A stretch of DNA of 60,972 nucleotides from Methanobacteriota archaeon (GCA_002726495.1 PBTH01000047.1:1-60972), one strand, 5' to 3'; positions 20,793 to 31,511 are shown, numbered from the stretch's first letter. The notes: generated by a model from the sequence alone, not told the origin. A program made the numbers and translations.

Positions 20793-21071
20793 ATGGTCCT
20801 TCTGAACCTCTGGTCCTTGTCTCATCTGTTGATTTGGCTCTCAGCAGGACGTTGGACTACCCTTCGTTGGCCATTGTTTGTAGTGCTGTCACTCGCTTGG
20901 GAGTGTTTTGAATGGGCTATTGACGGTCAATCATGGGCTTCATTCGCTGTGGAGCCCCTTGAGAATAAAATCGCTGATGTTGTAGTGAATACCATAGGGT
21001 TCTGGATTGGTTCGCGATTGCGTATTGATTCAACGGACTCAGTTGTCCTCAGTACATCGTTCAAGAACTGA
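20793..21071 (+). CDS. Small multi-pass membrane hypothetical protein
   Basis: Hydrophobic 92-aa ORF with patterned polar residues (WSLSH...AWECFE...E..ENKIADVVVN..G). Confidence 0.65.
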   Translation: MVLLNLWSLSHLLIWLSAGRWTTLRWPLFVVLSLAWECFEWAIDGQSWASFAVEPLENKIADVVVNTIGFWIGSRLRIDSTDSVVLSTSFKN

Positions 21072-22056
21072 ACAGTCTTGCTTTGACTTTGCGCATGTTG
21101 AGCCGGACTCCAAGGAGTAGTTTACGCCATAGAGGAAGACGTACAGGGTGGCTGAATACATCTCCAGACCTACGAACAATTTCATTCAATATGGATTGAT
21201 ATGCATCAGACATGATTTGAGGCTGTACTCGTGCGCGTGCATCCAGGTATCCGAAGAGATGGTTTGCTGAAGAGCGATGTCGCTTTATCATCTCAACGTA
21301 TTCGATAATGAAGCCACGCCACGATGGCGATTTTGCAACATTCGTTTGATGCAAATCATGGATTGAGATATTGTGAGATGCGAGAATGTCCAAGGGTAGG
21401 TAGATTCGTCCACGCTCCATATCTTCGTTGATGTCTCTTAGGACATTGATAAGTTGCATTTGGATTCCTAAATCAACGGCATGAAGCCGTGCTGCTCTGT
21501 CTTCATATCCATAAATTTCAATCAAAATTAGGCCCACAGCGGATGCAACCTTGTAACAGTATGAGCGGAGTTCATCCCATGTTTTGTTTTGAACGGGGTA
21601 GAGGTCGTCTTCCATACCTTCTAGCACGGTCTCAAAGTCGTGAATTTTGATGGGAAACCTTGCGAAAACATCTTGCAAAGCGATGAAAATAGGATGGTCA
21701 CTGGAGGTGATTTCCTCGTCCTGGGCCTTCTTTATTTTAATTCGGATATCAACAAGGGCCATCAAGCGACGACGGTACTCATCTTCAGGTAGTGCCGGTT
21801 CCTTTCCAGCATGAATTTCACTGATGATGCGCTGTCGAGCATCGGTTGCTTTTCGCAGTGAGTTGGTTTCCAAAATAGAGGGCTCTTCGTCTCCATCTAC
21901 AATGTCGTCCACCCATCGGCACAAGGCATAGACCGCATGAACGGCTCTTCGCTTGTCATACTGAAGTGCTGAAAATGAAGAAAAGAAGGTCGTAGATGCC
22001 TCTCTGCATACCGACTCGCAGTAAGTGTAGGCATTGTCAACGAGAAGTTGTTTCAT
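21061..22056 (-). CDS. crtB: Phytoene/squalene synthase family protein (phytoene synthase)
   Basis: YALCRWVDDIVD, YCYKVASAVG, LGIQMQLINVLRDINED..RGRIYLP; directly downstream of crtI. Confidence 0.9.
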   Translation of the reverse strand: MKQLLVDNAYTYCESVCREASTTFFSSFSALQYDKRRAVHAVYALCRWVDDIVDGDEEPSILETNSLRKATDARQRIISEIHAGKEPALPEDEYRRRLMALVDIRIKIKKAQDEEITSSDHPIFIALQDVFARFPIKIHDFETVLEGMEDDLYPVQNKTWDELRSYCYKVASAVGLILIEIYGYEDRAARLHAVDLGIQMQLINVLRDINEDMERGRIYLPLDILASHNISIHDLHQTNVAKSPSWRGFIIEYVEMIKRHRSSANHLFGYLDARARVQPQIMSDAYQSILNEIVRRSGDVFSHPVRLPLWRKLLLGVRLNMRKVKARLFSS

Positions 22057-22065
22057 GTTGATTCC

Positions 22066-29647: not shown

Positions 29648-31048
29648 ATGCCAACCTACGAACACATCGGCGAGTTTGACATGCCTGTGGAGCGTGTTTG
29701 GCAATGGTATGACAGCGCTGGGGCCTTCCGTAGAATCATGCCTGAATGGGAAGGAATCACTCCTTTGCAAGCAGGAGCGCTCAAGAATGGAGAGAAAACC
29801 AAATTCAAAGTAAGCATCGGGCCGATCAAGCAAAAATGGATTGCTGAACATCATGATGTGGTACAAGGCGAGGTCTTCCATGATCGAATGATCAAAGGTC
29901 CGTTTGGTGCGTGGGAACATGAACATCGTTTCCTCCCTGTTGATGCCTCATCTTCAAAAATTCATGATACGGTTCAATGGAAACTTCCCTTTCATATGTT
30001 GACTTGGTGGACTGCACCGTTCACGGTTAAGGGGAGAATGGACCAAATGTTTGCATATCGGACAACACGAGTTCACTCGGATTTGAAGCGCATTGCAGAA
30101 TTTGACCACATGCCTCGGCAAAAGGTTCTCGTGAGTGGTTCAACAGGCCTTATCGGAATGCAATTATGCGCATTTTTGGCAGCAGCTGGGCATCATATTA
30201 CGAGGCTTATTCGTCCAACAACCCGTCTTCCACCCGATGCATCAAACGATGCAGTTGTTGTTTGGGATGACCTCAAAGGCGAAGTTCTCAAGGGAGACCT
30301 TAACGGATTTGACACCGTTATTCACATGGCAGGGGCAGGAATCGGTGACAAGCGCTGGAACAAAAAAAGAAAGCAGATCATCGAAGAAAGTCGCACTGTC
30401 CCCACAAAAAACCTCACGACTCTACTTGGAAAACTTGACCGTCCACCAAAGGCCTTCATTTCCGGTTCAGCCATTGGATTTTATGGCAACAGGAAAGAGG
30501 AATTGATTGACGAGACCTCGGAAGGTGGCGATAATTTCTTGGCAAAAACCGTTCGAAATTGGGAACAGGCTGCCCAACCTTCCGTGGAAGCCGGCATCCG
30601 AACTGTTTGGATCCGAACAGGGATTGTCGTTACGCCCATGGGGGGCGCACTGAAGAAACTCCTTCTGCCAGCAAAACTTGGTGCCGGAGGGCCTGCTGGT
30701 GGAGGCAAGCAATATTATTCCTGGATATCTCTTGATGACCAAATATATGCGATTCATCATTTGATGATGAATCAAGAATGTGAAGGGCCATACAATTTGA
30801 CTGCGCCTAACCCTGTGACTCAAAAACAATTTGCAAAGGCCATGGGGAAGGTTTTATTCAGGCCAGCATTCGCCCCACTCCCTGGATTTGTGCTTAAAAT
30901 TCTCTTAGGAGAAATGGCTCAATCTCTTGTTCTTGATGGACAGCGTGTGTTGCCCAAACGTCTCATCTCAAGTGGATATACGTTCCAACATGATGGCCTT
31001 GAGCCATGTTTACGACAATGCCTTGGTAAACAAAGACTCTCCAGGTGA
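29648..31048 (+). CDS. SRPBCC (START-like) domain fused to TIGR01777 NAD-dependent epimerase/SDR
   Basis: Start MPTYEH at 29648. N-domain W.A.H...F.D.M.KGPFGAWEHEHRF...D.V.W; C-domain VSGSTGLIG, VIHMAG, FISGSAIGFYG, WISLDD, GPYNLTAPNP, GQRVLPKRL. Confidence 0.9.
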   Translation: MPTYEHIGEFDMPVERVWQWYDSAGAFRRIMPEWEGITPLQAGALKNGEKTKFKVSIGPIKQKWIAEHHDVVQGEVFHDRMIKGPFGAWEHEHRFLPVDASSSKIHDTVQWKLPFHMLTWWTAPFTVKGRMDQMFAYRTTRVHSDLKRIAEFDHMPRQKVLVSGSTGLIGMQLCAFLAAAGHHITRLIRPTTRLPPDASNDAVVVWDDLKGEVLKGDLNGFDTVIHMAGAGIGDKRWNKKRKQIIEESRTVPTKNLTTLLGKLDRPPKAFISGSAIGFYGNRKEELIDETSEGGDNFLAKTVRNWEQAAQPSVEAGIRTVWIRTGIVVTPMGGALKKLLLPAKLGAGGPAGGGKQYYSWISLDDQIYAIHHLMMNQECEGPYNLTAPNPVTQKQFAKAMGKVLFRPAFAPLPGFVLKILLGEMAQSLVLDGQRVLPKRLISSGYTFQHDGLEPCLRQCLGKQRLSR

Positions 31049-31052
31049 GAAT

Positions 31053-31511
31053 GTGGGCAAAGTTGCATCGTGGGTTGGTAAAAACTTCCCACATTTTTCA
31101 ATGATGTCTGAACTGGAGCAAGAGTGGACCAATCAAGACCTGCAAGGTTCGTGGAACGTCCTCTTCTTTTACCCCAAAGACCGGTCTCCCGGATGCAGTG
31201 TTCAAGCTCAAACTTTTGTCGATGAAGAAGAGCAATTTTCATCGTACGGAGCAAAGGTGTTCGGTGTTTCCAGCGACTCGATAAAATCACATACACAATT
31301 CAAGTGCGACATCGGGGGAAACTTAACCCTACTTTGTGATTCAAAATCGTCCCTTAGGAAGGAACTGGGCTTGGGCAAGACCCTCGGCATTATCCCGCAT
31401 AGGGTCACATTTGTCCTTGACCCTGAGGGCGTAATCCGTTGGGTTTTCAACTCACAACTTGCTGTGAAAAAGCATGTTTATGGCTCGTTAAAATATCTTT
31501 CAACGCTTTGA
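31053..31511 (+). CDS. bcp: Peroxiredoxin (Bcp/PrxQ)
   Basis: Canonical FFYPKDRSPGC and HRVTFVLD. Likely GTG start at 31053, just after the upstream stop. Confidence 0.88.
   Translation: MGKVASWVGKNFPHFSMMSELEQEWTNQDLQGSWNVLFFYPKDRSPGCSVQAQTFVDEEEQFSSYGAKVFGVSSDSIKSHTQFKCDIGGNLTLLCDSKSSLRKELGLGKTLGIIPHRVTFVLDPEGVIRWVFNSQLAVKKHVYGSLKYLSTL

Follow-up and report, generated by a model that had tools for sequence, protein, structure and literature searches.

The window considered here is the whole of contig C49 (60,972 nucleotides) of a Poseidoniales (Marine Group II, MGII) genome that is 81% complete. The subject of this analysis is a ten-gene cluster within it, which codes on one strand for RibA, an atypical peroxiredoxin (Prx), a regulator with a TrmB-type helix-turn-helix (HTH) domain, an ABC1/UbiB-family kinase (ABC1), CrtI, and CrtB, and on the other strand for a Nudix hydrolase, a class II photolyase, a protein with an SRPBCC and a short-chain dehydrogenase/reductase (SDR) domain, and a second peroxiredoxin (Bcp) (Table 1). 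All ten open reading frames (ORFs) were recovered where a preliminary description of the window had placed them, and their Pfam and NCBIfam profile matches agreed with the families it had named; corrected starts are likely for the Nudix gene (ATG 27605), the SRPBCC-SDR gene (ATG 29648), and bcp (GTG 31053). The tight or overlapping junctions that it had reported were reproduced by measurement: the gaps are 9 nt between ribA and the Prx gene, 1 nt between the Prx and regulator genes, 17 nt between the regulator gene and ABC1, and 9 nt between crtI and crtB; the Nudix and photolyase genes overlap by 4 nt, and all junctions are of 1-17 nt or overlapping except for the 92-nt gap ahead of crtI. Its statement that no classical photosensory domain is visible also held, since no LOV, BLUF, B12-binding, or PAS domain was detected in any of the ten proteins by the Pfam and NCBIfam scans.

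By full-length similarity, including the N-terminal and flavin adenine dinucleotide (FAD)-binding domains, the photolyase gene is assigned to class II (full-length match to the Methanosarcina mazei class II enzyme PDB 2xry, E = 4e-68; PDB 8oet, E of about 1e-68). The SRPBCC-SDR protein has the same two-domain build as PDB 3oh8 (E = 3e-66), and the closest solved structures to the Nudix hydrolase, which is assigned at the family level, are unnamed MutT/Nudix proteins. The ribA gene of the cluster is an extra copy (the other, 59% identical, is located at contig C10:23068-23634), and crtI is the sole copy found in this 81%-complete genome. For CrtB, only the family-level profile PF00494 passes, and no NCBIfam equivalog model reached its cut-off (HpnD, 193 bits with a cut-off of 279; CrtB models, 91-145 bits with cut-offs of 480-550); a phytoene synthase rather than a squalene/presqualene type is favoured because crtI adjoins it.

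Table 1. Positions of the genes and putative control elements of the cluster, numbered from the first nucleotide of the window
Feature	Position	Strand	Remarks
crtB-like phytoene/squalene synthase family gene	21061-22056	-	second gene of the crtI-crtB unit; SQS_PSY PF00494, 207 bits
crtI-family phytoene desaturase gene	22066-23679	-	heads its own putative leaderless unit; TIGR02734, 488 bits (cut-off 238)
TATA box of the crtI-crtB unit, TTTATATG	23702-23709	-	30 nt ahead of the crtI ATG
Oligo-T run (T6)	23741-23746	-	just past the ABC1 stop; read from the sequence
ABC1/UbiB-family atypical kinase gene	23772-25001	-	PF03109, 123 bits
Regulator gene (466 residues, TrmB HTH)	25019-26419	-	PF01978, 34.4 bits (cut-off 25.6), residues 8-69
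PrxQ/BCP-type atypical 2-Cys peroxiredoxin gene	26421-26888	-	Cys46 and Cys50; PF00578, 81 bits
RibA (GTP cyclohydrolase II) gene	26898-27509	-	first gene of the leftward unit; NF001591, 258.8 bits (cut-off 148); TIGR00505, 237.4 bits (cut-off 205.85)
TATA box of the leftward unit, TTTATATG	27532-27539	-	30 nt ahead of the ribA ATG
Candidate operator, CCTGTTCG-tatccggcatagggtc-TAAACGGT	27542-27573		outer dyad GT-N22-AC
TATA box of the rightward unit, TTGATATA	27576-27583	+	29 nt ahead of the Nudix ATG 27605
Nudix hydrolase gene	27605-28093 (ORF from 27584)	+	PF00293, 71.5 bits
Class II cyclobutane pyrimidine dimer photolyase gene	28090-29634	+	TIGR00591, 339 bits, residues 15-493; equivalog cut-off of 550 not reached
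SRPBCC (polyketide-cyclase-like) + TIGR01777/SDR39U1-type NAD(P) epimerase-like domain + DUF1731 gene	29648-31048 (ORF from 29558)	+	316 bits (cut-off 207)
Bcp/PrxQ peroxiredoxin gene	31053-31511 (ORF from 30927)	+	PF00578, 98 bits

As read from the sequence, the ten genes form three putative leaderless units, namely ribA-Prx-regulator-ABC1, crtI-crtB, and Nudix-photolyase-SRPBCC/SDR-Bcp, the first and third of which diverge from one control region (27510-27604). The leftward transcript is predicted to be leaderless because its TATA box stands only 30 nt from the ribA ATG, and the T6 run is the likely terminator of this unit. The crtI-crtB pair has a separate promoter and terminator context, with AAAACC standing 4 nt upstream of its TATA box, and may serve the retinal of proteorhodopsin as much as photoprotection.

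The cluster was compared among 151 species-representative Poseidoniales genomes, of which 101 have an orthologue of the regulator (at least 50% identity) and 97 an orthologue of the photolyase. Both are held by 96 genomes; in 89 of them, the two genes lie on one contig, in divergent orientation and within about 3.3 kb, and in the remaining seven, the regulator gene lies less than 2 kb from a contig end. In a synteny sample of 18 orthologous loci, taken from 17 genera and both families (f1 and f3), the recurrent core is ABC1-regulator-Prx-ribA facing (Nudix)-photolyase-SRPBCC/SDR, that is, six or seven genes. The Prx gene adjoins the regulator gene in every one of these loci, ABC1 does so in 14, and SRPBCC/SDR directly follows the photolyase gene in 14 of the 15 photolyase-bearing loci. 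Recurring in both families, and with regulator and photolyase genes adjacent in 89 of 96 genomes, the gene arrangement is far beyond chance; the core is a conserved unit and not a chance neighbourhood, and its genes are not scattered in relatives. The island of ten genes put forward in the preliminary description stands only in part, as its core of six or seven genes is conserved and the other members are only frequent or occasional: the Nudix gene was found in 7 of the 15 loci retaining the photolyase arm (all f1 loci and just two f3 loci), about half of the 18 loci have crtI and/or crtB next to the core (crtB is linked in eight), and bcp is linked in three. No publication on this cluster or its regulator was found in the literature.

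Rhodopsin (PF01036) is encoded by 91 of the 151 genomes and by 90 of the 101 that have a regulator orthologue. With regulator, photolyase, and rhodopsin scored together, all three are present in 87 genomes, none in 49, and a mixture in 15, the mixed cases being mostly explicable by fragmented assemblies. If rhodopsin-free genomes are presumed to be aphotic, the cluster is far from equally present in aphotic lineages. Presence and absence both occur within genera g2, g3, g12, g14, g15, g17, and g18, and therefore joint loss of the three traits has occurred repeatedly. The co-occurrence of proteorhodopsin and photolyase in photic MGII has already been published (Rinke et al., PMC6461757; PMC10480650) and was attributed by Rinke et al. 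to niche shifts and gene transfer (PMC6461757); what is new here is that the regulator shares this pattern and is physically tied to the photolyase gene. In genus g17, the photolyase arm has been lost and ribA-Prx-regulator retained; in genome G077 of this genus, a rhodopsin gene (L043:12017-12865, minus strand, on G077:C20) is directly upstream of ribA-Prx-regulator on the same strand, and a hairpin then follows.

The opposed TATA boxes of the control region are separated by 36 bp, and the candidate operator fills that space, overlapping both positions of the transcription factor B recognition element (BRE), so that a dimer bound there would affect both promoters. Within its outer dyad lies an inner pseudo-dyad, TCC-N6-GGG. 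The same dyad layout was found in 35 loci (32 distinct inner segments), with a GT-AC spacing of 20-23, mostly 21-22; these loci span both families, between which the regulators are only about 50% identical, and the spacing is constant while the intergenic length ranges from 57 to 158 nt. With the anchoring bases excluded, the inner segments scored 110 for dyad symmetry against 72.5 ± 7.1 for shuffled segments (z = 5.3), a figure in which kinship of the sequences overstates their independence. A strict box, defined as AAC[AG][GCT] located 2-6 nt upstream of a TATA 8-mer, was present in the right arm of 22 and the left arm of 16 of 39 distinct regions, in comparison with 4.6 of 39 after shuffling and with 4 of 62 TATA promoters elsewhere in the genome. 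Similar boxes also stand ahead of crtI, crtB, and ABC1 in relatives wherever these genes own a TATA box.

The genome was further scanned with a loose dyad, C[TC]GT[TC][TC]-N14-22-[AG][AG]AC[AG]G, which gave 57 matches, seven of them intergenic against about four expected, and no credible second operator elsewhere in this genome. The best extra site (C31:33465-33495; CTGTTTT-N17-GAACAG with a TATA-like sequence) is not conserved in 30 relatives and is probably a chance match; it lies between a mevalonate kinase gene and an HdrD-like/MutY unit, with the gene for the TATA-binding protein next. Membership of rhodopsin in the regulon is unsupported, the strict box being found in 2 of 20 rhodopsin promoters and a looser one in about six. 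Among the few non-cluster promoters with an [AG]AAC element a few nt ahead of a leaderless-type TATA box are those of a glutathione-peroxidase-like gene and a NifU-like gene (C27:9789-10241, minus strand, and C15:6641-7093, plus strand).

The structure of the regulator was modelled with AlphaFold2 from 32 orthologues (predicted local distance difference test score (pLDDT), 75). The model comprises a winged helix (residues 1-70), a coiled coil (72-114), a TrmBL2-like alpha/beta domain of phospholipase D (PLD) fold (119-270), a disordered linker (272-302), and an alpha/beta C-terminal domain (310-456). Residues 1-270 superpose on TrmBL2 (PDB 5bpd; Foldseek E = 1.5e-13), on TrmB (PDB 3qph; E = 1.2e-9), and on PLD-fold proteins. 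The N-terminal half belongs to the TrmB family, and the C-terminal sensor is novel. The designation of the protein as a TrmB-type regulator was thus correct for its winged helix, and a plain TrmB protein it is not, as an extra C-terminal domain is visible as a sensor module. A search of the regulator profile against PDB sequences gave nothing beyond a marginal MarR-like HTH. The recognition helix (T39-Q52) is invariant in orthologues down to 56% identity, in keeping with the invariant GT/AC core of the candidate operator.

V4R domains are usually placed in the H-NOX/TRAPP-type fold group. When residues 300-466 were modelled alone (pLDDT 77; predicted template modelling (TM) score 0.67), the nearest folds were BcsD, TRAPP/Bet3 subunits, H-NOX, and YslB (Foldseek E of about 1e-3 to 1e-1, TM score 0.42-0.50). 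The V4R part of the NCBIfam MsvR profile NF053755 aligns to residues 335-440 (E = 1e-6) with 28.7 bits, for a cut-off of 220, and orthologues carry the Joint Genome Institute (JGI) label 'predicted hydrocarbon binding protein'. Residues R347, Q348, G350, R352, E356, W378, E379, Y388, D417-D418-G419, and R428 of the C-terminal domain are invariant. In the 32 orthologues, this domain has no conserved Cys or His, and residues 300-466 contain no Cys at all; a thiol switch as in MsvR or a His-ligated haem as in H-NOX is therefore unlikely, and non-covalent binding of a small molecule would be the more natural reading. At least 90% of the 32 orthologues share the single cysteine of the regulator, C157, which is situated in a helix of the PLD-fold domain. 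A phmmer search with residues 100-466 against 1.84 billion representative proteins gave 111 matches, mostly same-family fragments, and the sensor part was unmatched in about 103 other Thermoplasmatota genomes sampled; among the sets searched, it was seen only in Poseidoniales.

The regulator has a paralogue of equal length and 31-38% identity (loci L045-L049; for example, G005:C1:22857-24173 and G003:C1:1294684-1295937), which is the only regulator copy in 15 further genomes of the survey and also occurs in rhodopsin-free genomes. Its neighbours are genes for FdhD and a molybdopterin oxidoreductase at one locus and for TPR, GCV_T-like, and malate dehydrogenase proteins at another. With such unrelated contexts and its presence in rhodopsin-free genomes, it was rejected as a part of the system, and it probably represents a further sensor that has the same architecture and responds to a different ligand.

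Photolyase needs FAD, and archaeal class II enzymes use the deazaflavin 8-hydroxy-5-deazaflavin (8-HDF) as antenna, both being products of the RibA pathway; CrtI is itself a flavoprotein, and ABC1 kinases are linked with prenyl-lipid homeostasis. Taken as a unit, the cargo is functionally coherent. The cluster is conserved and limited to photic lineages, and it includes a plausible regulator and operator of its own. The reading that we prefer, and hold to be somewhat probable, is that of a lineage-specific photoprotection and photorepair cluster of rhodopsin-bearing Poseidoniales, both arms of which would be controlled by the cluster-encoded regulator through the dyad, with a signal read by its C-terminal pocket. 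In this model, two leaderless units would diverge from the compact control region, often with crtI-crtB following the leftward one as a third, and a dimer of the regulator would bind the dyad of about 30 bp between the TATA boxes and control both arms, including its own gene. Repression relieved by the signal is somewhat favoured over activation because both TATA boxes are near-consensus. The signal would be read by the cysteine-free pocket and would most likely be a small hydrophobic or aromatic molecule, the level of which reports light or photo-oxidation (for example, a flavin or deazaflavin species, a carotenoid or prenyl intermediate, a tetrapyrrole, or an oxidised lipid). As for the cargo, the photolyase would repair cyclobutane dimers, the extra RibA would feed the pathway to FAD and the 8-HDF antenna, the two PrxQ-type peroxiredoxins would remove peroxides, and CrtB and CrtI would make the lycopene backbone of a protective carotenoid and/or retinal.

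Expression data relevant to the cluster are available from Damashek et al. (2021), who compared field samples with 24-h dark incubations (PMC9723583). In their MGIIb genome, the cluster corresponds to genes 715-719 (SRPBCC-SDR, phr, ribA_2, Prx, and 'transcriptional regulator') and 659-660 (UbiB and crtB), and among genes 715-719 only ribA_2 reached the test, the others being too thinly covered (PMC9723583). A crtD-like gene elsewhere fell 19-fold in the dark, and uvrA and cofH also fell (PMC9723583). Since that crtD belongs to another locus (genes 39-41) and not to the cluster, its drop was rejected as direct evidence on the regulator. It is plausible that MGII transcribes carotenoid and repair genes in response to light, and for the cluster itself, joint regulation by light or reactive oxygen species is what we infer.

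Several of the results count against joint control of the cluster by its regulator. The gene ribA_2 (gene 717) was unchanged in the dark (log2 fold change, +0.33 ± 1.1, not significant; PMC9723583), and crtI, crtB, Bcp, and Nudix are inconstant members. The outer half-sites of the candidate operator are located at the BRE positions, and a similar box stands at the unrelated promoters counted above. In g17, about 60 bp separate the two half-elements, which each stand next to a TATA box of their own and flank a divergent region between rhodopsin and SDR genes. That the dyad is nothing but two unusually good BREs back to back is a minor but real possibility. With regard to the sensor, residues 300-466 gave no Pfam match, V4R included, even at E = 10, and the V4R/H-NOX/TRAPP-like assignment of the modelled domain is weak.

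The alternative that fares best concerns only the crtI-crtB arm, which may mainly supply retinal to proteorhodopsin and not a photoprotective pigment, the island then combining the use of light with repair of its damage; we regard this as quite possible, if somewhat short of probable. It agrees with the joint occurrence of regulator and rhodopsin given above, with the inclusion of rhodopsin in the cluster of g17, with crtI being the sole copy found in this genome, and with the assignment of crtI and crtD to retinal synthesis by Damashek et al., in whose data crtD transcripts fall in the dark (PMC9723583), whereas the scarcity of the strict cluster box in rhodopsin promoters speaks against it. 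The Blh/Brp-type dioxygenase profile PF15461 had no match in this 81%-complete genome, nor in any control genome, and is thus uninformative on this point.

It is unlikely, in our judgement, that the cluster is simply an island of the photic niche, the members of which are gained and lost together with no joint control by light or oxidants. The promoters would then be strong and constitutive, the AAAC-type box a good BRE, and the regulator would govern its own operon or another target through an ordinary metabolite such as a flavin. The location of the box at the BRE position, its occurrence at 4 of 62 unrelated promoters, the weak A-rich bias at -9 to -7 of the other TATA promoters of the genome, the half-elements of g17 that stay by their TATA boxes though far apart, and the lack of change in ribA_2 over a 24-h dark incubation in a single field dataset are all compatible with such an island, as is the explanation of the proteorhodopsin/photolyase pattern by niche shifts and gene transfer (PMC6461757). 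However, two independent promoters would need neither the constant TATA-to-TATA geometry nor the inner dyad symmetry, the box is about 6-9 times commoner at cluster promoters than at other promoters, and a regulator gene that abuts the Prx gene and in 89 of 96 genomes has its presumed targets as neighbours typically points to local control. Very unlikely, finally, is a purely inferential thiol relay analogous to yeast Gpx3-Yap1 and Tpx1-Pap1, in which the PrxQ-type Prx, oxidised by peroxide, would pass its oxidation to Cys157 of the regulator and alter DNA binding: the Prx gene ending 1 nt ahead of the regulator start and adjacent in all orthologous loci, the Cys46/Cys50 pair typical of PrxQ, the exactly one, conserved regulator cysteine, and the precedent of MsvR for thiol control in a winged-helix and V4R protein would suit it, but C157 lies in a PLD-fold helix outside the V4R-like domain, there is no second cysteine for an intramolecular disulfide, and the conserved C-terminal pocket domain would be left with no role.

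Control of the cluster by its own regulator, as preferred here, can be compared with known systems. In the TrmB family (TrmB, TrmBL1, and TrmBL2 of Thermococcales; PDB 3qph, 5bpd, and 2f5t), a palindromic target near the BRE/TATA is typical. The regulator resembles these proteins in its above-cut-off match to PF01978 and in the superposition of residues 1-270, and differs from them in having an extra 160-residue pocket domain beyond the disordered linker and a sensor part confined to Poseidoniales; no sugar gene, as a link to TrmB-like sugar control, adjoins the regulator gene in the 18 orthologous loci. The haloarchaeal Bat regulon (bop, brp, and crtB1) is one in which light and oxygen co-regulate rhodopsin and the supply of carotenoid and retinal, and in the bacterial sigma-E/ChrR singlet-oxygen regulon, photolyase, lipid-modifying, and SDR genes respond to photo-oxidative stress. 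Neither the GAF-PAS-HTH domain set of Bat nor that of the anti-sigma factor ChrR is present in the ten proteins here.

The bacterial LitR/CarH light regulon is, by analogy, the closest functional parallel. In Pseudomonas putida and P. mendocina, the LitR regulons co-induce PhrB, a short-chain dehydrogenase, FAD-dependent oxidoreductases, and the GTP cyclohydrolase FolE (PMC9758184), so that in both systems photolyase is clustered with an SDR and a GTP cyclohydrolase that feeds a chromophore pathway (FolE there, RibA here); carotenoid genes belong to the regulon in other bacteria. The LitR/CarH regulators, however, are of the MerR type with a B12-binding domain or a LOV partner, none of which is found in the ten proteins, and the cluster here has archaeal promoter machinery and putatively leaderless transcripts. 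The closest parallels of the regulator itself are MsvR and CrtR, and it is a member of neither family. MsvR of methanogens consists of a winged helix and V4R and has oxidative-stress genes as neighbours; it acts as a repressor at its own promoter, where it recognises an inverted repeat (PMC3729527). Likeness lies in the winged helix joined to a V4R-type C-terminal domain (a weak match here) and in the oxidative-stress neighbours. In contrast, the regulator scores far below the MsvR cut-off (28.7 bits vs 220), has none of the conserved V4R cysteines that form the redox switch of MsvR, has a TrmB/TrmBL2-like N-terminal half with a coiled coil and a PLD-fold domain, and is associated with photolyase, RibA, and carotenoid genes in an aerobe. 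CrtR of Corynebacterium glutamicum is a MarR-type repressor of light-induced carotenogenesis, the effector of which is prenyl diphosphate (PMC6739363, PMC5401885). It likewise has no recognisable photosensory domain and is encoded divergently from its crt targets, binding the shared intergenic region and repressing; unlike the present regulator, it has a MarR fold, is bacterial, and controls crt genes only, with no photolyase or flavin genes. The cluster can be viewed as a new variant of the light-inducible photolyase/carotenoid regulons of bacteria, with an archaeal regulator of an undescribed kind; in function it is a counterpart of the LitR/CarH regulons, with a regulator unlike theirs.

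Poseidoniales rank with the most abundant archaea in sunlit ocean waters. To our knowledge, they have never been cultured, and their light sensing and response have not been explored beyond the fact that they carry proteorhodopsin and photolyase. The cluster offers a testable lead on the light response of these uncultured archaea: it is a compact and tractable circuit with a single regulator, a candidate operator about 35 bp long, and nine genes as cargo, and as a set of genomic markers it tells photic and aphotic lineages apart more clearly than rhodopsin does by itself. A more far-reaching proposal, which we make tentatively and consider rather doubtful, is that the TrmB-PLD-V4R-like protein founds an undescribed class of archaeal regulators that sense light or photo-oxidative stress, found only in Poseidoniales, in which the cysteine-free pocket binds a chromophore or a light-generated small molecule (for example, a flavin or deazaflavin, a retinal or carotenoid derivative, or a tetrapyrrole) and so switches the bidirectional leaderless promoter of the genes for photorepair, flavin supply, removal of peroxides, and carotenoid synthesis. 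If that were true, planktonic marine archaea would have their first defined light-response circuit; the ligand, if found, would tell how a heterotroph that has no classical photoreceptor reads sunlight, and might provide a new ligand-switchable archaeal promoter.

Other photolyase-like genes were noted during the survey. Many Poseidoniales genomes have a second photolyase-like gene, about 29% identical to the cluster enzyme, the reading frame of which runs on into a C-terminal FAD-dependent amine-oxidase-like domain (821 residues in total in L051:2178-4643, minus strand, corresponding to G006:C12). Similar photolyase-amine-oxidase-like frames of about 780-820 residues occur in many genomes, and no copy was found in the present 81%-complete genome; the fusion may be a photoreceptor akin to cryptochromes or a repair enzyme of a novel kind. 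PF04244 (CryB/FeS-BCP type) is absent from this genome (81% complete). In the first published MGII genome, the cluster genes are apparently consecutive, MG2_1592 to MG2_1599 (eggNOG best hits, supplement of PMC9723583), and MG2_1590, two genes from the cluster, is a COG3046 'photolyase-related protein' of the CryB/FeS-BCP type. In the MGIIb genome of PMC9723583, genes 1005, 1009, and 1010, beside the MG2_1590 orthologue, were strongly depleted in the dark.

A pair of tandem crtB/FDFT-like synthase genes, 35% and 24% identical to the cluster crtB, is located at contig C1:14366-16700 and corresponds to the crtB-FDFT-crtD locus of PMC9723583, where crtD dropped in the dark. Within the window, a gene for a beta-helix/PKD surface protein of 1,641 residues lies upstream of the cluster (10663-15588, plus strand). 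Just downstream (31577-35390, plus strand) are two ORFs of 839 and 447 residues that gave no Pfam match, and this ORF pair adjoins the cluster in genus g4 too (L032).

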